DNA of 64,000 nt, from NCBI GenBank assembly GCA_964016885.1, contig OZ024743.1, positions 161,386,001 to 161,450,000 of the forward strand, written 5' to 3'. Positions 2,105 through 55,968 of the stretch are shown here, in pieces. This stretch comes from Eledone cirrhosa (taxonomy: Eukaryota). The notes beneath the pieces are model-generated. The model saw only the letters and a program-made list of their open reading frames with translations, had not been told where the DNA came from and did not search any database. The translations under genes and the position numbers were made by a program. Every line of letters starts with the position of its first letter. Position 1 is the stretch's first letter.

Positions 2105-2858
2105 ATCATCATCCTCATCATTTTACGTCCGCTTTTTCCTGCTTACTAGTGTGGGACGGGTCCTATTCAGCACACCATCTCTCCATTCGTCACGGTCCTT
2201 TGTCATCTCCCTCGTGAGCTTCAGCGATCTGAGATCAGCTCTCACCACCTCCGCCCATGTTTTGTGTGGTCTTCCTCTACTGCGTCTCCTTCTACTGGGA
2301 ATTTTTTGGCACTTCTCTACCCAGCGGTCATCCTCCAAGCACATCACATGTCCATACCAATGCAGTCTTCTCTCCCACACACTATAACTTATCCCTCTTA
2401 TACACAGTTTCTCTCTCAACTCATCTATGCTTGGTCGTTCACACACATTGACATCTACTGCATATGTAGTTTTCCCTACCTGTTAGTTTGCCTGCTATCC
2501 CACTACATCTCTTGTGTACCCAAGATCTGCATTGTGTACATTTTATAGAATTTATACCAACTCCTTTTCTACATATCGAACAGGGTCATTTCCCTGATGG
2601 ACTCAGAGTTTTGTCCTCTCTTCTACTTATCAACACTTTAGTCTTAGCTAGGTTCACTCTCAGTTCTCTTGATTCCAACTGCTGTTTCCATAGCCAGAAT
2701 TTATTCCCTAGCTTCTCTACTGATTCTGCTATAAGTACCAGATCGTCAGCATAGAGAAGTTCCAATGGGCAGCCAGTCTTAAACTCCTCTGTTATGGCTT
2801 GGAGGACTATAATGAACAAGAGTGGGCTGAGGACCAAACCCTGATGTACTCCTACTTT
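2105..2858 (-). mobile_element. RTE-clade LINE, 5'-truncated, with (GAT)n tail
   Basis: KVGVHQGLVLSPLLF, ELLYADDLVLIAES, RRLHWYGHV, RGRPHKTW; (cat)n tail at 2105-2121. Confidence 0.92.
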
Positions 2859-3062
2859 AATAATGAAAAATAAGGACCCAACCCAACACAAGGAGGGGAA
2901 TTTGATCTTGTGATCATGTGTGGTATAATCTTCCATATTGTGCTGGATTAAGCAATAATTTTTGTCAGGGAACTTGACAGATGCCTCCCAGAGCAACATA
3001 GCTATCATATGATATTCAATAGAAACACAGTGAAGCTATTTTACTCCATGACTAGGAATTTA
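2859..3062 (+). mobile_element. PLE remnant, piece 2 (RT-endonuclease linker)
   Basis: WYNLPY...LDRCLPEQHSYHMIFNRNTVKLFYSMTRNL matches PLE linker WFNPPY...HFP..H.LHKIFNRNTVKVSYSCMPN. Confidence 0.85.
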
Positions 3063-5143
3063 GTACAGTCCCAACATAGCTTAGTTGTCAGAACTAGACG
3101 AACCTGGAAACAGAAGCCAACCTGGAGAAGAAAGATCTGGAAGCTGAAAGACCCCTCAGTCAGTAACAGATTTAAAGATATTTTACTCAACTCCTATGAC
3201 AGTAAAGAAGAAATGATAGAGACATTCAATGTAGAAGAGCACTGGGAGTTCCTAAAAAATAACTTACTAAAGGCGACGGATAAGATCTGTGGCTGGAGTA
3301 AGACCACAGGCAGGGGGAGAGTGACTTGGTGGTGGAACAGGAGGTGTTCAAGATTGCGAGGCAGTGAGTCAGAGAGAATTGTGATGTCATTGGAAAGAAG
3401 TGTATCCTGAATGATAAAGGTGAGCTTGCCCTCACAAGTGCTGAGAAGAAAGATGTGTGGAAGAGCCATTATGATAGATTACTAAATGAGGAGAATGCAT
3501 GGGAAAAAGAGACCCTATAGAGGGGCCAGCAGTACAAGTCAGCAGCAGCGTGGTAAGTAAGGCAATCAAAGATATGAAGACGGGGAAGGCAACCGGACCA
3601 TCAGGTATAGCTGCTGAGATGCTGAAGGCATCTGGGTCAGTAGGTCACACTATAACCATACGTATTGTTAACCAGGTAATACTAGAAGGTGTCATACCAA
3701 AGGATTGGTGCAGTAGCATCATTGTCAACTGCTACAAAGGTAAAGGTGATGCACTAGATAGAGGAAACTGAAAGTAACAGAAAGAGTTATAGCACAGTTG
3801 ATTAGGGGCCAGGTGAAACTAGATGAGATGCAATTTGGGTTTGTGCCAGGAAGAGGAACCACTGATACCCTCTTCATTGTGAGGCAGTTACAAGAAAAGT
3901 ACCTAGCTAAAAGTAAGCCGCTCTACTTGGCATTTGTCGATCTCGAGAAAGCCTTTGACAGAGTTCCACGTGCTATAATCTGGTGGGCTCTTAGAAAACT
4001 AGGAGTAGATGAATGGCTTGTGAAAGCTGTACAAGCCATGTATAGGGGAGCAGTCAGCAAAGTTAGGATTAGCAATGACTATAGCAAGGAATTTAGTGTA
4101 CAGGTCAGTGTCCACCAGGGCTCTGTACTTAACCCTCTCCTGTTCATCATAGTTCTGCAGGAAATAATGGAGGAGTTTAAAACTGGATGCCCATGGGAAC
4201 TCCTGTATACAGATGACCTCACACTTATAGCTGAATCTATGGTAGAACTAGAGAAGAAATTCCAAATTTGGAAGCAGGGACTAGAAAGAAAGGGTCTCAA
4301 AGTCAACCTGACAAAGACTAAGGTCCTTGTAAGTAGACGAGAAAACAGAACCCAGATCCCCTCAGGGAAATGGTCTTGCTCAGTATGTAGGAAAGGTGTA
4401 GGTAGGAACTCCATTCTCTGCCCCAAATGCAAACAATGGGTACACAAGAGATGTAGCGGGATCTCAGGAAGCTTAATTAAGAATGTAGGCTTCACATGCA
4501 GCAGCTGTGCTGGGACAGCAAGCAGCAAACAGTCACAGGAAACAAGTACCACCAAACTCTGGGAGGGTTCTGTAGAAACAGTAGACAGCTTCTGCTACCT
4601 AGGTGACCAAATTAGCAGCGGAAGTGGATGTTCGGAAAGTACAATAACTAGGGTAAGAACGGCTTTTCCCTCAAAATGAAAGGCAGACTGTATGATGCAT
4701 GTATACAAACAGCAATGTTACATGGTAGTGAGACCTGGGTGCTGTCTGTGGAAGACTTGCGTAGATTAGAAAGAGCGAAGCCTGCATGCTCCGATGGATG
4801 TGTAATAGTAATATACGCGAACGACAAGGCATAAATGAATTGAGAGAGAGACTGAGCATAAGAGGAATCAAATGCTGTGTGCAGGAGAGGCGGTTGCGTT
4901 GGTATGGACATGTGATGCGTATGAAGGATGACAGCTGCATAAAAAGGTGCAGAGCACTAGAGGTCGATGGAAACCGCGGAGTGGGGAGACCCAAGAAGAC
5001 CTGGGATGAGGTGATAAAGGCCGACCTTACTCGTATGAGCAAGGTATGGTCAGCCGACCGGACACTGCCCACAACAGGACAACCCGTCTAACCCATGCTA
5101 GCATGGACGAACGGACGTAAAATGGTGACGATGATGATGATGA
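3063..5143 (+). mobile_element. RTE-clade LINE, 5'-truncated, internally deleted, (GAT)n tail
   Basis: ORF 3798-4679 contains QFGFVPGRGTTD, AFVDLEKAFDRV, HQGSVLNPLLF, YTDD and DSFCYLG; C-terminal RRLRWYGHVMR..GRPKKTW; gatgatgatgatga tail. Confidence 0.95.
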
Positions 5144-6915: not shown

Positions 6916-7018
6916 GAGTATTATTATGATTAGTACTATTTTATTTTATACTTTTTATTTTTAATGTATATGTAGCTGATCTCTCAGATTTATATGAAAC
7001 GCTAAGGGGATAAAGTTT

Positions 7019-7193
7019 ATATAAAGAGTGGTGTACTTATGTGTGGAGATGCTTTAAAAAGGGTGAAGACCCCTGAAGAAAAACAAGTTCCCATCGGCCG
7101 GTGGCAACATCTTTTTCTGTCTTTAAGAGTCTTCATGCTTTATTATAAGCTATTTCATAGCATCTCCCCACATGAGCACACCACTCTTTATAT
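7019..7193. repeat. Imperfect palindrome (foldback element)
   Basis: atataaagagtggtgtacttatgtgtggagatgct pairs with agcatctccccacatgagcacaccactctttatat; centre gttcccatcggccggtggcaac is self-complementary. Confidence 0.9.
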
Positions 7194-7309
7194 TAATTTT
7201 TATTTTTATTTTATTTGTAGTGTCATCTTGTACCTAATTGCGGTTATTCTATCATTCTTTATTATTATTATTATTGGCCTTGTGCCAAAAGTAGAAACAA
7301 TTATTATTA

Positions 7310-7665: not shown

Positions 7666-7769
7666 TTATTTTATGAAAAAGAGATGTTTGGGAGGATAAG
7701 GAAAAGGGAGACAGATAAGAGTAAAAATATAAGGGATATATATATATATAATATTGCCAGAATTAATAA

Positions 7770-8146
7770 CAGAACACACTCACTGTTTGGTTGGTTTTCG
7801 CTTCTCGCTATCTTTTATATCGGTAATCTAACTTACTCGGTCCTCAATGTTGCCATTGTCTGACCGACGGTCAAAAATAAGACAGATACAATTTAGACAC
7901 AAACACATATATATAGTTTATAATAAAATGGCGTAGACATACAACACAATATAACGCCACTGACGATGTTGCAGATGTGCAACGAAAGATTTATGATAAA
8001 CTATATATATGTGTTTGTGTCTATATTGTATCTGTATTATTTTTGACCGTCGGTCAGTCAATGGCAACATTGAGGACCGAGTAAGTTAGATTACCGATAT
8101 AAAAGACAGCGAGAAGCGAAAACCAACCAAACAGTGAGTGTGTTCT

Positions 8147-8147
<1 letters not shown>
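7770..8147. repeat. Long foldback element (~155-bp arms) embedded in (TA)n
   Basis: cagaacacactcactgtttggttggttttcgcttctcgct...atatagtttat (7770-~7927) is the reverse complement of ~7989-8147 with few mismatches. Confidence 0.97.
7916..8001 (+). ncRNA. Type III hammerhead ribozyme fold (cleavage triplet degenerate)
   Basis: Stem I tggcgt(7929-34)/acgcca(7954-59); CUGACGA 7960-66; extra U; stem II gttgca/tgcaac with GAUG loop; GAAA 7984-87; stem III continuous with the foldback arms. The NUH position reads AAA. Confidence 0.7.
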
Positions 8148-8180
<33 letters not shown>

Positions 8181-9534
8181 GAGAGAGAGAGAGAGAGAGA
8201 GAGAGGAGGGTCTTAATAAAGCACATTTGTTACATTAGATCACTAAGACAAGCCTTTAATATCTGAAAGAAGTAGAATTAGTGACAGTTTAATGAGGTAG
8301 TATGTTAAGTTATTGTTTGTCATGGAAGTTAACTGCTGAGCAAGGTAGCAGTAGTGATAATGACACTTCATTATCACAGTAGACAATACACAAAAATAAA
8401 TAGCAACCAGGAAAATAGCTTTAACATATAATTTGTAGTCACTGATAGTAGGAATTATTGGATTGTCCAAGCAAGAGATGATTAGCCATGCTGTCAGAAA
8501 GAAGCTAATGAAAAGATTAAATTAACCTTTAGTATCAATAGAAATATTGTTTGTTATAAAACTGCTTCACAATAAAGAAAGAAATGTTTGAGAGGTTTAA
8601 CTTTCTAACACATATTGTTATAAGATGTAATAAACAGGATTTGTATACTCCTCCACACATTTACACACTCACACTTGATGTTTGTAAATGTATTACAGAA
8701 GCAGCAACATCATCATCATCATCACAGTGAAGACTATTGGAAGTCCCTATCCGTTCATGGAATGCTCATCTGTTGATAGTCTAAGATCTTTTTCTCTCTC
8801 TCTCTCTCTCTGCACTTTAGCTTTAGTCCACTAAACTATCTGCAGGTGTTGGATGATAAAAAAGTTAGATGTTTTGAAACTAACAAGATGCTGCATCATT
8901 TAGCATTGGTCAGCCTGACTGTACAAATAGAATCACCTTCAAACCACACTATCACCACATCATTGTCATTATCATCATCTCCTTTATCATCATCATTGAT
9001 ACATATTTCTTTCAAATGATTTTCTCTTCTTCCACCTTCAATCATTCTGACTGTTTTTATTGTATGCTCTCTCAAGTTTGGTTTAATGTCATACTAGAAT
9101 GGTGCACACTGCTAAGTTATGTCAGCAACCCCATTAATGTCCTACACTATAGTAAGTGCAGAAATTACAAAAAAAATCAATATGTATTTTTCCCGTAAAC
9201 TGATCAATAACATCACAAGATTTTATTCATTTTTTCTTTTATTTTACCATCAGTTGTACATCAAAAGGTTTCAAGAATAGCATCAATTTCGTTGATCTGT
9301 TTGAATCATCCCTTACATCCCTTTCATCTAGAAATGTCTAATTTCAGGTGCACTATTTTAATTTTCCTTTAAAATAAACACATATTCATGAATGACAGCC
9401 TTCTTGGATATGTTAATCACAAAGCTCTGATAAGTTGATCAGTGCTTGAATTCTTTGTTTGAGGTCCTCCATTTTTCCTGACAAAATTTCTATTGAAATT
9501 GATTGTTACTCCAAAATCATACTCATTTGTTACT

Positions 9535-10683: not shown

Positions 10684-11110
10684 CAAGGTTTGTCCCAAAA
10701 GTAAGGATACTGATGTTTTATTTAAATGTATATTAGATGTACATGAAATTATAAATTATCTCCTCAAAATACAATGAGGAAGTAATGCTATGCTTTCAAT
10801 GCTTTGTATGTTTTCCACAAATTATGACCCTTCAACTTCGATTTCAACTTAGGGAAGACGTAGAAATCACACAAGTCTAGATCTGAATTGTAGGGAGGAG
10901 GTAGGATAGTGAAAATCTTTTTCTTCACTAGAAATTCTCTAATTGAAAGTGTTGTGTGAGCAGGTGTATTATCGTGGTGCAGTACCCAATCTTTTGCAAC
11001 GTCCTTTCAGATTCATTGGACCCATTTTCAAAATCATTCCAAGACATCCTTACAGAATGATTACAATTTTTTTTGACAGTCGTGGCATTGTTCACAAAAA
11101 AGTTTTACCT
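10684..11110 (-). mobile_element. Mariner transposase remnant, internally inverted
   Basis: Minus strand: LHHDNTPAH (~10955-10982) and PPYNSDLDLCDFYVFPKLKSKLKG (~10826-10903). Plus strand: MITIFFDSRGIVHK (~11058-11100). TIR-like caaggtttgtcccaaaagtaagg next to (TA)n. Confidence 0.8.
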
Positions 11111-11111
11111 C

Positions 11112-11735
11112 CAGTACAATAACTAGGGTAAGAACGGGATGGAAGAAGTTCAGGGAGCTACTGCTACTGCTAGCTGCAAAAGGCTTTTCCCTCAAAATGA
11201 AAGGCAGACTGTATGATGCGTGTATAGGAACAGTAATGTTACATGGAAGTGAAACCTGGGCGCTGTCTGTAGAAGACTTGCGCTGATTAGAAAGAAACGA
11301 AGCTTGCATGCTCCGATGGATGTGTAATAGTAATATACATGAACGCCAAAGTATAAACAAATTGAGAGAGAGACAGAGCATAAGAGGAATCAAATGCTGT
11401 GTGCAGGAGAAGAGGTTACATTGGTATGGACATGTGATATGTATGAAGGATGACAGCTGCATAAAAAAGTGCAGAGCACTAGAAGTCGATGGAAGCAGCG
11501 GAGTGGGGAGACCCAAGAAGACCTGGGATGAGGTGATAAAGGCTGATCTTACCCAATTGCACCTCGCAAGGGCAATGACACACGACCGTGACCTCTGGCA
11601 TCACGCAGTAATACAGAAGACCTGACCCCCCACAGGAACAAGCCGAAGCTGAAGCATATAGACAATATGCCCCCCTCCCTCCCTCCCCCAGCCCACACTG
11701 TAAAGTGGACGTGTAGGCGCCATGGGAAAAAACAG
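11112..11735 (+). mobile_element. RTE LINE 3' fragment
   Basis: RVRTGWKKFRELL..GFSLKMKGRLYDAC..MLRWMC..RLHWYGHV..GRPKKTW (ORF 11308-11625). Confidence 0.92.
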
Positions 11736-13727: not shown

Positions 13728-13836
13728 GCTACCAAACTTCATAGATTTAAAGTGCATTCGTATGGTAGCCCAACTTTTTGTGATCATTGCGGATCGCTAC
13801 TCTATGGGCTGATTCATCAAGGCTTCAAATGTGATG
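13728..13836 (+). CDS. PRKCA: Internal exon of conventional protein kinase C (C1b domain N-terminal part: [36 protein letters not shown])
   Basis: Acceptor ttgtctgcttctag, donor g|gtaagt; 109 nt, phase 0 to 1. Near-identical to vertebrate PKC-alpha [32 protein letters not shown]. Tyr in LLYG indicates a conventional PKC. The symbol denotes the cPKC (alpha/beta/Apl I) orthogroup. Confidence 0.97.
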
Positions 13837-16946: not shown

Positions 16947-18228
16947 CAGGGTGTGGACGATATTTGTTCGCAAGATTACTGTCTAGGAAAAAGTAACACA
17001 GTAGTTTTATTTTTTAAGATATATTTATCAAACTTGGGTCAGTTTGTCTTCATCACTTGATCTCATTCGATAAACCCGCCATTGGCTTTGATGTCGGCCT
17101 CAAGGCGGCCCCGGAACCGGCTACAGGCCTTTGTCACTGTCCCCCGACTTAGGCCCATAAAAGCACTTGTATCCTGGCCTTCAGATCATCTTTCATATTG
17201 CAGCTAGATCCGTTGGTGTCTTGTTCCACTGCGCCCCACACAAAGAAGTCGAGGGGGTTGCAGTCAAGCGAGCCCGGAGGCCAGATGTCAGGTGAAGTGT
17301 GGTCGACGAAGTTCTCTGACAGCCTCGCTTGGGTCTTTCGGCTGGAATGGCAGGGCGCTGAGTCTTGCTGCCACACGTACGACCTACCTGCAGCTACCTG
17401 GTTGATTCAGGGCTTTACTACCTTGCTCAGAACGCAGATGTAGCCATCGGTGTTCAGCTTGAGGCCCTCAGGGAAGAAGTGAGGTGGCATGACGTCACCT
17501 TGACTGCTGACAACACCTAAGACCAATGGTGTCTGCATGACTCTGGGCACGTCTTTGGATGAGACAGTGAGCCACCTGTTGTTCTGGGAATTGATCTTCT
17601 GGTCCTGGCAGAAGTTTTTCTCGTCGGAGGAAAACCACAGCATGTCTGGCTCCAGTGAGTGTTTCAACTTGTTGATCAGCTTCTTTGCATGCTTCAGCTG
17701 CTTTTCTTGCATCGCCTTTGACAGAAATTGTCTTTTCCTCATCTTGTATGAAACGTAGCGAATGTCTTCATGTACCACCAGCCTAATGAGCTTTCCATCC
17801 ACGCCTTTCTCCCTTGCAATGGCATGCATCGACTTGCTAGGTTCATTGTTGATGATATCCTGGACTTCAGCGACGAACTCGGGCGTTCTGAGGGCGTCAG
17901 ATCGTCGATCAAGTGTTTTTCTCTCTGATGTTGCTTCATAGTCGAATCCTGAATCTTCCAATTCCTTTCTGACCTTTTCCACCATTATCCTGCAGACGCT
18001 GAGAAAGTCTGAAACTTGCTTATTTGTCCTCCCAACGCGGATTCCAAGAAGAACTCTGTGTCTCTACCACAAATTTGGAGGTTCAAAATTATTCATAATC
18101 AATTATTCTGAAAATAAATAATTGAAATATAGTCACTGTTTTTATGAAGACAAGAGTGACAACGGAAGTAAAAAAATTTGCATAAAATTAGCAGTTGAAA
18201 ATTGCGAACAAATATCGTCCACACCCTG
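16947..18228 (-). mobile_element. Tc1/mariner DD37D (maT) DNA transposon, copy 1, frameshifted
   Basis: TIRs cagggtgtggacgatatttgttcgcaa / ttgcgaacaaatatcgtccacaccctg, TA-flanked; WFSSDEKNF, WQQDSAPCH...DCNPLD with 37 residues between the 2nd and 3rd Asp. Confidence 0.95.
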
Positions 18229-34559: not shown

Positions 34560-35849
34560 CAGGGTGCGGACGATATTTGTTCGCAAGATTACTGTCTAGG
34601 AAAAAATAACACAGTAGTTTTATTTTTTAAGATATATTTATCAAACTTGGGTCAGTTTGTCTTCATCACTTGTTCTTTAGATCTCACTTGATAAACTCAC
34701 CATTGGCTTTGATGTCAGCCTCAAGGCGGCCTCGGAACCGGCTACAGGCCTTCGTCACTGTCCCCCGACTTAGGCCCCTAAAGGCACTTGTATCCTGGCC
34801 TTCAGATCATCTTTCGTATTGCAGCTAGATCTGTTGGTGTCTCGTTCCACTGCACCCCACACAAAGAAGTCGAGGGGGTTGCAGTCAGGCGAGCTCGGAG
34901 GCCAGATGTCAGGTGAAGTGTGGTCGACGAAGTTCTCTGACAGCCAGGCTTGGGTTTTCGGCTGGTATGGCAGGGCGTTGAGTCTTGCTGCCACACATAC
35001 GGCCTACCTGCAGCTACCTGGTCGATCCAGGGCTTTACTACCTCACTCAGAACGCGGATGTAGCCATCGGTGTTCAGCTTGAGGCCCTCAGGGAAGAAGT
35101 GAGGTGGCATGACGTCACCTTGACTGCTGACGACACCTAAGACCAATGTTGTCGCTGGAAACTTTGTCTGCTTGACTCTGGGCACGTCTTTGGATGAGAC
35201 AGCGAGCCACCTGTTGTTCTGGGAGTTGATCTTCTGGTCTTGGCAGAAGTTTTTCTCGTCGGAGAAATACCACAGCATGTCTGGCTCCAGTGGGTGTTTC
35301 AACTTGTTGATCAGCTTCTTTGCATGCTTCAGTCGCTTTTCTTGCATCGCCTTTGACAGAAATTGTCCTTTCCTCATCTTGTATGAAATGTAGTGAATGT
35401 CTTCATGTACCACCAGCCTAATGAGCTTTTCATCCATGCCTTCCTCCCTTGCAATGGCACGCATCGACTTGCTAGGTTCATTGTTGATGATATCCGAACT
35501 CGGGCGATCTGAAGGTGTCAGATCATCGATCATGTTTTTTCCACTCTGATGTTGCTTCGTAGTCGAATCCTGAATCTTCCAATTCCTTTCTGACCTTTTC
35601 CACCATTCTCCTGCTGACGCTGAGAAAGTCTGAAATTTCCTTCTTTGTCCTCCTGGTGTGGATTCCAAGAAGAACTCCGTGTCTCTTCCACAAATTTGGA
35701 TGTTCAAAATTATTCATAATCAATTATTCTGAAAATAAATAATGGAAATATAGTCACTGTTTTTATGAAGACAAGAGTGACAACGGAAGTAAAAAAATTT
35801 GCATAAAATTAGCAGTTGAAAATTGCGAACAAATATCGTCCACACCCTG
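34560..35849 (-). mobile_element. Tc1/mariner DD37D (maT) DNA transposon, copy 2
   Basis: Same TIRs, TA-flanked; ORF 34802-35707 has WYFSDEKNF and WQQDSTPCH; a frameshifted ORF has WPPSSPDCNPLD. Confidence 0.95.
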
Positions 35850-49164: not shown

Positions 49165-52024
49165 ACACAAACTTCAAAAAACGAAACAATCACTTGATCA
49201 TCACTTGATCAGGGAAACAATCACTTGATCAGGGGAACATGCCAGCCAGATAGATTATATCCTTACTAGAAGATGTGACAGAGTGTCGGTTAAAACACTA
49301 AGTCCCTTCTCCGTGAGGAATGCACCTCCCAACATAGCCTATAGTTAGTGACCTCCTAGTCAGAACTAGATGTACTCGACGACAGAGGAGGACTACCCCA
49401 AGGAGAAGAATATGGAATCTGAAGGACCCCACAACCAGTGACAAATTGAAAAACATATTACTTGTTGTTTTTGACAGTAAGGAAGAGCAATTAGAGATGT
49501 ACAATATAGAGGAACAGAGGGAATTCTTGAAAGTTAACCTGCTAAAGGCAGCAGATGAAATTTGTGGCTGGAGCAGACCTATAGGCAGGAGGAGAGTAAC
49601 TTGGTGGTTGGGGAGACAATCAAGGCCAAAATGCAGGCTTGGAAAGTATGGCGGGATGGGAGAAGTAGAGAACACTATCAAATGGCCAGGAGAGAAGCTA
49701 GGAGACAAGTGTACCTTGCAAGAAGGAAAACATAGGATAGAAAGTTCAAACATGTTCTACAACGCGAGGACAAAAAATGTGAGGTGTTCAGGATTGCAAG
49801 ACAATGTGTCAAGGAAAACCATGTTATTGTCGGGGAGAAGTGTGTCCGTAATGATGATAGTGTACTTGCCCTCACTGATACTGATAAGAAGGTAGCTTGG
49901 AAGTGTCACGACGAGAGACTACTAAATGAGGAGAATAAATGGGAAAAAGATAGTCTGCCCCAAATCAATCCAATAGAGGGACCAGCAGTGCATGTTAGTG
50001 GTAGTATAATAAGTAAGGCAATCAAAGATATGAAGACAAGCAAGGCAACTGAGCCTTCGGAGATAGTTGCTGAGATGTTGAAAGCATCTGGAATGATGGG
50101 ACATACTATGGTCACCCGGATAGTAAACCAAGTAATGGGGTCATACCAAAGGACTGGCATAGCAGCATCACCATTAACTGCTACAAGGGTAAAGGAGATG
50201 CTCTAGATAGGGGAAACTATAGAGGCATTAAGTTAGTTGACCAGGTCATGAAGGTCACAGAAAGAGTTATAGCACAACTAATCAGAGATCCAATTAATCT
50301 AGATGAAATGCAGTTTGGGTTTGTTTCAGGTAAAAGTACTACAGATGCTCTTTTCCTTGTACGACAACTACAGGAGAAGTACCTAGCTAAAAGTAAACCT
50401 CTCTACTTAGCTTTTGTTGACTTGGAGAAAGCCTTTGACAGAGTCCCATGCCCCATTATCTGGTGGGGCCTTAGATAGTTAGGAATAGATGAATGACTTG
50501 TGAGAGCTATACAAGCCATGTATAAAGAAACAGTCAGCAAAGTTAGAATTAACAATGAATATAGTGAAGAATTTACCTTAAAAGTTATCAAGTTCATCAA
50601 GGCTCTGTCCTTAGCCCCCTCCTGTTTATTATTGCCCTTCAGGCTATAACAGAGGAGTTTAAGACTGGTTGCCCGTGGGAAATTCTATATGCAGATGATC
50701 TAACTCTCATAGCTGAATTTATGGCTGAACTAGAGAAGATATTCCAACATGGAAGCATGGCCTAGAATCAAAAGGCCTTAAAGTTAACTTGTCTAAGACT
50801 AAAGTTCTAGAATGTAGAAAGGAGAATAGAGCACAGGTGCCCTCTGGGAAATAGCCATGCTCAGTGTGTAGGAAAGGAGTAGGCAGGAATTACATTTTAT
50901 GTCCCAAATGCAAACTATGGGCACATAAAAGATGTAGTGGGATCACAGGTAAACTATCTAAGAATGTTCATTTTATATGTGGCCAGTGCTCAGGTGTAAT
51001 AAGTAGCAAGTGCCTACAGGATACTGCCCAGATGGTTCTATAGAAATAGTGGACACTTTCCGTTACCTGGGTGACAAAATCAGCAGTGGTGGAGGGTGCT
51101 CTGAAAGTACAGTAACCAGAGTTAGAATGGGATGGGAAAAGTTCAGAGAGCTTATACCGCTGTTGACTACAAAAGGTTTCTCTCTAAAAATGAAAAGTAG
51201 ATTGTATGATGCTTGTATTCAAACAGCAATATTAAATGGCAGTGAGACATGGGCATTGTGTGAAGAGGACCTGTGCAGACTGGAAAGGAACGAAGCATGC
51301 ATGCTCCGTTGGATGTGTAATAGTAACATACGTGAACGGCAAAGCATAAATGACCTAAGTGAGATATTAGGAATAAGAGGGATCAGATGCTGTTTACTTG
51401 AGAGAAGATTATGTTGGTATGATCACATGATGCGCATGAAAGACGACAGCTGTATAAAAAAGTGCAGGGTAATCAAAATTGATGGAAGTTATGGAGTGGG
51501 TAGACCCAAAAAACCTCGGACGACATGATAAATTCTGACTTTGCACACTTGCACCTCTCTAAGACAATGTCACTAGATCGAGATCTCTGGCGCCACGCAG
51601 TAATACAGATGACCTGCCTTCCCTACTTGCAAAGTTAACCTATAGACAGTAGTCCCCTACAAACCAAACATACATCCCAACCCACTACCCCTACTCCATT
51701 CTTCCACTCTCACCAACACCACCCCTTTCTCTATAAAGTTATGTTGGTACCACAACATCCAGTCCAAACTAATGAGGTCATGTAGGTGTCACGACAAAAA
51801 TAATACAGTCCACGCTGTAATATGGTTGTGTAGGTAACACTGGAAAAAAGATCCTAGTCCACACTCTAAATGTGGTTGGTGTTAGGAAGGGCATCCAGCC
51901 GTAGAAAACCTGCCAGATAGTCCTATACAAGCGAGACACGGTCACCCAACCAATCTTGCCTCAAGTGGGACAATTCCCGTCTAACCCATGCTAGCGTGGA
52001 AGATAGACATTAAACAATGATGAT
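49165..52024 (+). mobile_element. RTE LINE, ~2.9 kb, 5'-truncated, multiple stops and frameshifts
   Basis: NYRGIKL, QFGFVSGKSTTDA, AFVDLEKAFDRV, YADD, Cys-rich insert, DTFRYLGD, RRLCWY; 3' UTR and (gat)n tail. Confidence 0.95.
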
Positions 52025-55839: not shown

Positions 55840-55968
55840 CATGTGATATGAACATACATAAAAAATGTCAGAAAAATGTTCCACAACTGTGTGGTATTGA
55901 CCACACTGAAAGACGAGGTCGCATTAAACTCAACATTACATTCAAGAAGAATGAACTGATTGTTAGAG
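55840..55968 (+). CDS. PRKCA: Next internal exon of conventional PKC (end of C1b, start of C2: (A)[42 protein letters not shown])
   Basis: 129 nt, phase 1 to 1, in frame with the 13728 exon (G|CA = Ala); donor g|gtaggt. Matches PKC-alpha [28 protein letters not shown]; completes all 8 Zn ligands of C1b. Confidence 0.97.

Follow-up and report, generated by a model that had tools for sequence, protein, structure and literature searches.

Penelope-like elements (PLEs) are known to carry minimal hammerhead ribozymes, for which Cervera and De la Pena (2014, PMC4209133; cited, like the other papers named here, for selected passages) give the consensus CUGANGAH GNNNNN..NNNNNC GAAAN-palindrome-NUH. 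In D. virilis, helix I has 2 bp, and this form cut poorly in vitro (PMC4209133). Head-to-head inverted, 5'-truncated copies have been described for PLEs (PMC8557442), their targets are biased towards (TA)n (PMC3846280), and one PLE protein, once purified, was able to nick both strands and extend them in vitro (PMC11167929). The passages and supplement of PMC4209133 searched here contain no match for 'Octopus'.

The stretch of Eledone cirrhosa DNA analysed here (the window, 64,000 nt) contains a long inverted repeat with arms at 7766-7927 and 7990-8151 (162 nt each, 96% complementary) and a spacer of 62 nt, in agreement with the near-perfect foldback and spacer of about 60 nt reported in an initial annotation made from the sequence. 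The arms are mismatched at 6 of the 162 positions and are also unequal in length. The predicted fold has a free energy of -272.6 kcal/mol (z = -41), and none of 100 shuffled sequences reached equal stability. The extent first given for the hairpin, 7770..8147, describes a real structure, but its left arm begins at 7749. The features of the locus and its host gene are as follows:

7736 to 7748, no strand: (TA)n target tract, left part, read from the sequence
7749 to 7921, minus strand: inverted, more deeply 5'-truncated copy of a PLE pLTR, forming the left arm and lacking the ribozyme core (BLAST)
7922 to 8148, plus strand: sense, 5'-truncated pLTR/3' UTR of a Penelope-like element (29-copy alignment; BLAST to a full unit)
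7922 to 7927, plus strand: head-to-head junction, with a 5-nt microhomology, ATAAA (7923-7927), common to both pieces
7925 to 7936, plus strand: AAAATGGCGTAG box, kept in a sister family; it holds what was first annotated as the 5' strand of 'stem I'
7958 to 7959, plus strand: 5' strand (CA) of type I helix I, able to pair with 7994-7995 in 79 and 81 of 81 young cores
7960 to 7967, plus strand: hammerhead box CUGACGA plus an extra U, as in PLE minimal hammerheads (CUGANGAH; consensus of Fig. S3 in PMC4209133)
7968 to 7983, plus strand: helix II, 6 bp, loop GAUG (predicted fold; two compensatory pair changes in the sister family)
7984 to 7993, plus strand: GAAA, 2-bp helix III with palindromic AU loop, and NUH = UUA at 7991-7993 (pattern count 8,502)
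7994 to 7995, plus strand: 3' strand (UG) of type I helix I, predicted from pair probabilities to be held in the long hairpin here
8149 to 8176, no strand: (TA)n tract, right part, followed by (GA)n, read from the sequence
13728 to 13836, plus strand: next downstream exon of the host PKC gene, C1 domain (PF00130, E 1e-10; AG/GT borders)
55840 to 55968, plus strand: second C1-domain exon of the host PKC gene within the window

The tract on both sides bears out the proposed insertion into (TA)n, and the C1-domain exons on the plus strand confirm that the hairpin, which is intronic, lies sense to the pre-mRNA of a classical-PKC-like gene. Two upstream exons of this gene, the first coding exon among them, lie about 83 kb (L195) and 191 kb (L206) before the element. 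The intron that holds the hairpin is about 89 kb long, and the next exon follows 5.6 kb downstream of the element. At 8079-8086 the right arm contains a strong 5' splice-site-like motif, GAGTAAGT, in the sense orientation of the PKC transcript, which may serve as donor for an intron in the PLE 5' UTR.

When the window element was used for a DNA search of the genome, 653 candidates were returned, and most of the 40 scored matched only query positions of about 155-378, i.e., the core and the right arm. The 31-nt hammerhead core has 8,405 exact copies in the genome (0 for the control), and the 22-mer downstream of it has 9,508. Longer copies continue upstream, where an ORF encodes an RT (YVDD), then a C-x4-C-x2-C linker and lastly a GIY-YIG endonuclease, which reads VVY..YIGET with downstream R, H, E and N and a Cys/His pattern that is that of PLEs. 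A tandem array yielded a unit of 4,145 bp, whose ORF start (MTLPKYNN) lies just 3' of the hairpin arm. The tie to PLEs that had been suspected is thereby borne out, the core being located in a PLE pLTR that spans the 3' UTR and the start of a single ORF encoding RT and then GIY-YIG. Like the endonuclease-bearing Neptune/Nematis PLEs of Craig et al. (2021, PMC8557442) and Arkhipova et al. (2013, PMC3846280), the source element has an RT followed by a C-terminal GIY-YIG, a CX2-5CxxC linker (here CTNRKCIIC), partial tandems, head-to-head inverted copies, an optional 3' tail, (TA)n targets and an asparagine-rich insert in the ORF; it has two alternative 3' ends. By the linker criterion of PMC8557442, it is classed as an endonuclease-bearing PLE of Neptune/Nematis type. 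The window insertion differs from the elements in those papers in that it lacks the ORF and both of its partners are under 230 nt, which gives it the look of a MITE-sized hairpin. Full-length tandem units of 4,145 bp are found at L169/L170 (G000:C1:14.380-14.398 Mb), with an inverted truncated copy at the 5' end of the array; the one unit analysed has a single frameshift and the asparagine-rich insert in its ORF.

The 120 homologues listed for the source PLE protein include no named PLE reference, and the best named match was to Octopus vulgaris (71%). Pfam matched neither of the two ORF pieces taken from the family itself; on homologues it returned RVT_1 at E 0.004, below the cut-off, and GIY-YIG at E 1e-6. 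A PDB profile search gave weak RT matches alone (best E 6e-4). The sister family, about 70% identical in the ORF, has 2,407 candidates in the genome. In both families an AA(A/G)ATGGCGTAG box is conserved about 75 nt before the predicted ribozyme cut. This box, whether written AAAATGGCGTAG, AA(A/G)ATGGCGTAG or AANATGGCG, is one that we take to resemble a YY1 promoter site. We sampled 101 copies of the element, namely the first 100 anchor matches on contig C1 and the neighbours in those loci, and 7 of the 101 have 5' ends at -89 to -74 relative to the cut, with none at -73 to -14; this cluster may correspond to a site where transcription starts or where the RT stops.

The spacer of the hairpin had been read as a type III hammerhead, and all of the core parts are found where they were annotated: TGGCGT at 7929-7934, preceded by AAA, ACGCCA at 7954-7959, CTGACGA at 7960-7966, an extra T at 7967, the helix II strands GTTGCA (7968-7973) and TGCAAC (7978-7983), and GAAA at 7984-7987. 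Nevertheless, the topology that the family conserves is that of type I, in which GAAA precedes the cut site. Judged from its sequence, the ribozyme is the native type I minimal hammerhead of the PLE, in which GAAA-G-NN-Y-U-H is followed by a UG that pairs with CA, and the cut is predicted between 7993 and 7994. This pattern (GAAA-G-NN-Y-U-H|UG) occurs at 8,502 places in the genome, a count that forms no strict ratio with the 8,405 core copies because the type I pattern starts 5 nt later than the core pattern.

Pairing was counted in 164 cores from all loci examined, kept if helix II had at least 4 pairs (a non-random sample, 9 of them irregular), and covariation was judged between families within this genome. 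The first two pairs of helix I, like helix III, are intact in 79-81 of the 81 young cores, in 34-36 of the 36 old ones and in 37-38 of the 38 from the sister family. The young cores read G-AU-U-U-A and the older ones G-AA-C-U-U, so that pair 15.2-16.2 is G-U in the former but G-C in the latter, and H17 is A or U, respectively. The main family has A-U as pair 4 of helix I, against G-C in the sister family (36 of 38), where helix I is a 4-bp GUCA/UGAC in 36-37 of 38 cores. Covariation in stems I and II, which had been proposed as a check, is thus seen against the sister family when the ribozyme is read as type I, but not in the type III 'stem I', whose fourth pair forms in only 5 of 81 young and 1 of 30 old main-family cores.

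Helix I is weak in the main family: its pair 3 is a mismatch in 80 of the 81 young cores and 35 of the 36 old ones, and pair 4 holds in only 40 of 81 young ones. The computed probability of helix I is at most 0.03 there versus 0.45-0.48 in the sister family, and so weak a helix suggests that the main-family ribozyme may be decayed or in need of help. In nearly all copies an upstream UGG is able to pair with the CCA/UCA before the core, an alternative and possibly inhibitory pairing. The features that the source PLE shares with the metazoan PLE type I minimal hammerheads of PMC4209133 (D. virilis and Oikopleura variants) are the pLTR location, CUGANGAH with its extra nucleotide, a 6-bp helix II opening with G-C, a 2-bp helix III with a 2-nt loop, a 2-bp helix I, mostly solo and truncated copies, and opposite-strand pairs lying close together. 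Unlike the hammerheads in that paper, it has a palindromic loop 3 (AU) in the young subfamily only, with AA in the older and sister cores, and its helix I runs on past a mismatch.

A type III ribozyme by descent was considered and rejected, the G that completes 'stem I' being present in 21 of 8,405 copies. A UH lies ahead of the upstream strand in just 5 of 143 cores (young, 1 of 81; old, 3 of 30; sister family, 1 of 32), which goes against the expectation that the family consensus would carry NUH before 'stem I' and is an outcome that the initial annotation had itself named as refuting its reading; TH before TGGCGTAG occurs at 170 places in the genome. The window copy has AAA in place of U16.1-H17, and a conserved, covarying, looped helix I was not found. 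The AAA triplet before TGGCGT had been noted correctly, but the 'tct' thought to have been lost was never there in the family. With no UH upstream, the window copy is predicted not to cut as a type III ribozyme, as was first proposed. The type III look of this copy is, on these sequence comparisons, accidental. Its predicted fold has the type III geometry of plant LTR retrozyme hammerheads; unlike those elements it has no UH and no LTR, and the geometry is not conserved across the family.

An Rfam search of the window locus returned no hammerhead among 7 matches at E <= 10, and for the family cores L211, L155, L242 and L048 there was none among the matches listed (best 150 of 171). These blanks are uninformative either way because the models miss minimal variants. 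The idea that 5' ends of copies mark the ribozyme cut was also rejected; among the 101 copies, the ends near the site lie at -13, -13, -4, -3, +1, +8, +9 and +16, and the copy ending at +1 has a longer arm with one substitution.

The two arms were then compared with the family. The left arm matches one full unit over 7920-7749 (BLAST, 89%) and begins about 3 nt past the position at which the type I cut is predicted. The sense piece begins at 7922, 72 nt ahead of the predicted cut, and when aligned with 29 other copies it shows a private deletion of about 11 nt near 7948-7950. Relative to L005, a copy of the nearest subfamily, there are 5 substitutions, all in the left arm (one at the junction), and 0 in the right. 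About 20 nt of element sequence present in the left arm are absent from the right, and both arms end before the usual 3' ends of the family. An exact search for the central junction found 1 occurrence in the genome.

We consider it highly probable that the hairpin is a short 5'-truncated pLTR joined head to head with a shorter inverted copy of itself, likely in one insertion into (TA)n of the PKC intron; the family membership, copy numbers, architecture and single-copy junction behind this reading are direct observations. The window hairpin is accordingly a pLTR fragment of a known kind of retrotransposon; both its ribozyme type and its insertion pattern are known from PLEs, and the suggestion of a new kind of system is not upheld. 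In the proposed mechanism, the PLE endonuclease would nick (TA)n, the RT would make two short cDNAs by priming on both strands, or else one self-primed cDNA, and the cDNAs would be joined through the ATAAA microhomology. The extra 20 nt or so in the left arm favour priming on both strands, or a later deletion. A simple insertion model does not explain the short 3' ends and the one-sided substitutions.

Those same features, trimmed ends and unequal change counts in the arms, are what would be expected if a solo pLTR fragment had inserted first and the inverted arm had arisen later at the DNA level, by foldback in replication or repair; palindromes in (TA)n are moreover unstable. We regard this sequence of events as unlikely, since the left arm contains about 20 nt missing from the right, and so was not copied from the present right arm, and since inverted partners are too common in the family for rare repair accidents. 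In the 101 sampled copies, an inverted piece adjoins at least 30 of 56 truncated ones, with junctions from -2990 to +440 of the predicted cut. In this strict count, which was kept in place of a looser one of 48 of 58, some pairs contribute each of their arms, one tandem contributes four units, and several visible cases go uncounted.

The initial annotation had proposed a family of non-autonomous, rod-like 'ribozyme-hairpin' elements that carry a type III hammerhead and are possibly mobilised by PLEs. A wider pattern did retrieve 15 foldbacks of similar layout genome-wide, three of them with one and the same junction (a 4-nt AAAG overlap), the window hairpin does fold with type III geometry, and a UH in the type III position is seen at three other loci. 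The 15 look-alikes, however, have 13 different junctions, come from different subfamilies and end at different places; the window junction is unique, the stem-completing G is as rare as described above, and each type III locus is single-copy. Many copies of one junction, or head-to-tail tandems, as a retrozyme or other non-autonomous family would have, were not found for the window junction, which has 1 copy. A family of this kind is thus very improbable. The three foldbacks with a shared junction differ in their insides, which fits repeated origin; they are possibly a tiny subfamily. At L143 2970-4080 (G000:C1:42.1495-42.1506 Mb) a small head-to-head pLTR fragment that lacks the ribozyme core is repeated in tandem as four units of about 290 bp; all have one junction, and they are a local amplification of a foldback. 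The window element is like animal non-LTR retrozymes (bioRxiv 10.64898/2026.07.22.740005, cited for selected passages) in being non-coding and PLE-related with a type I hammerhead; unlike them, with their head-to-tail tandems and a hammerhead per unit, it is head to head, with one core and an unamplified junction.

An assembly or sequencing artefact, i.e., a read turned back on itself, is scarcely credible. In its favour, all arm changes are on one side, and in the contigs from four of 24 sequencing runs the central junction is never spanned and the left one is covered by no more than 17 letters. Against it, 6 of 162 positions differ between the arms, whose lengths are also unequal, and such inverted pairs are common in the source PLE and described in other species.

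Returning to the single insertion of a head-to-head pLTR pair, the native hammerhead is predicted to have weak activity, limited to dimers in tandem PLE transcripts. The native cut site of the window copy, UUA, is intact. In the predicted fold, the left arm pairs with this UUA and the UG after it, the probability of helix I is 0.000, and the type I fold would cost 9.4 kcal/mol. The long hairpin likely blocks the ribozyme by burying its cut site in the PKC pre-mRNA. With the type I site buried and no UH upstream, neither topology is predicted to cut, and the window copy would be a silent ribozyme within about 160 bp of intronic double-stranded RNA.

Three other foldbacks carry a UH in the type III position. 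At L155 1320-1430 (G000:C1:47,244,4xx), the core is intact with CUU, and helix I consists of U-A, G-C, A x C, U-A and G-C; at L242 1500-1620 (G000:C5:79,697,7xx), in the sister family, the core is again intact with CUU, and helix I has three pairs. L183 1500-1620 (G000:C14:31,608,4xx) has CUA, and its core has an A9-to-G change. In L155 and L242 the foldback arm ends a few bases further and complete type III cores are formed by chance; their type III fold lies 8-9 kcal/mol above the predicted minimum, which ignores core contacts. Each of the three junctions is single-copy, a count that is a lower bound since the patterns need exact matches. L238, L241 and L243 were tried as type III junctions and rejected as unrelated sequence.

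A tentative reading, which we think less probable than not by some distance, is that PLE foldbacks occasionally rewire the dimer-dependent type I hammerhead into a complete type III one whose helix III is the whole hairpin, and that L155 and L242 would cut as monomers, releasing long double-stranded RNA. The window copy would be a near miss of this route. A search of the literature, in sources mostly outside subscription journals and seen in part, found no report of type I to type III conversion by foldback. If L155 and L242 do cut as monomers, a retrotransposition accident can permute hammerhead topology, and there would be a natural, repeatable route for the circular permutation of a ribozyme.

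With these results an octopod PLE family joins the elements known to carry minimal hammerheads, and a striking hairpin is accounted for as an insertion by-product. With about 8,500 copies in several subfamilies, the family also offers natural variation in helix I and helix III as useful material. The host lineage is known for heavy A-to-I editing, and the many intronic PLE hairpins would be substrates for it.

Other hammerhead-like motifs were seen in unrelated repeat families, at L155 1894-1965 (minus strand) and 2268-2339 (plus strand) and at L003, L006, L007, L011 and L016; the two in L155 match Rfam HH9 below the gathering score, with E 1e-6 and 2e-5, on opposite strands. Elsewhere in the window, positions 2123-5091, 11061-11625, 49298-51528, 17407-18063 and 34802-35713 hold fragments of mobile elements, presumably RTE-like LINEs and Tc1/mariner-like transposases, judging by their motifs. 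A second inverted repeat, MITE-like, lies at 7012-7059 and 7153-7200, with 48-nt arms that are 85% complementary and 93 nt apart.
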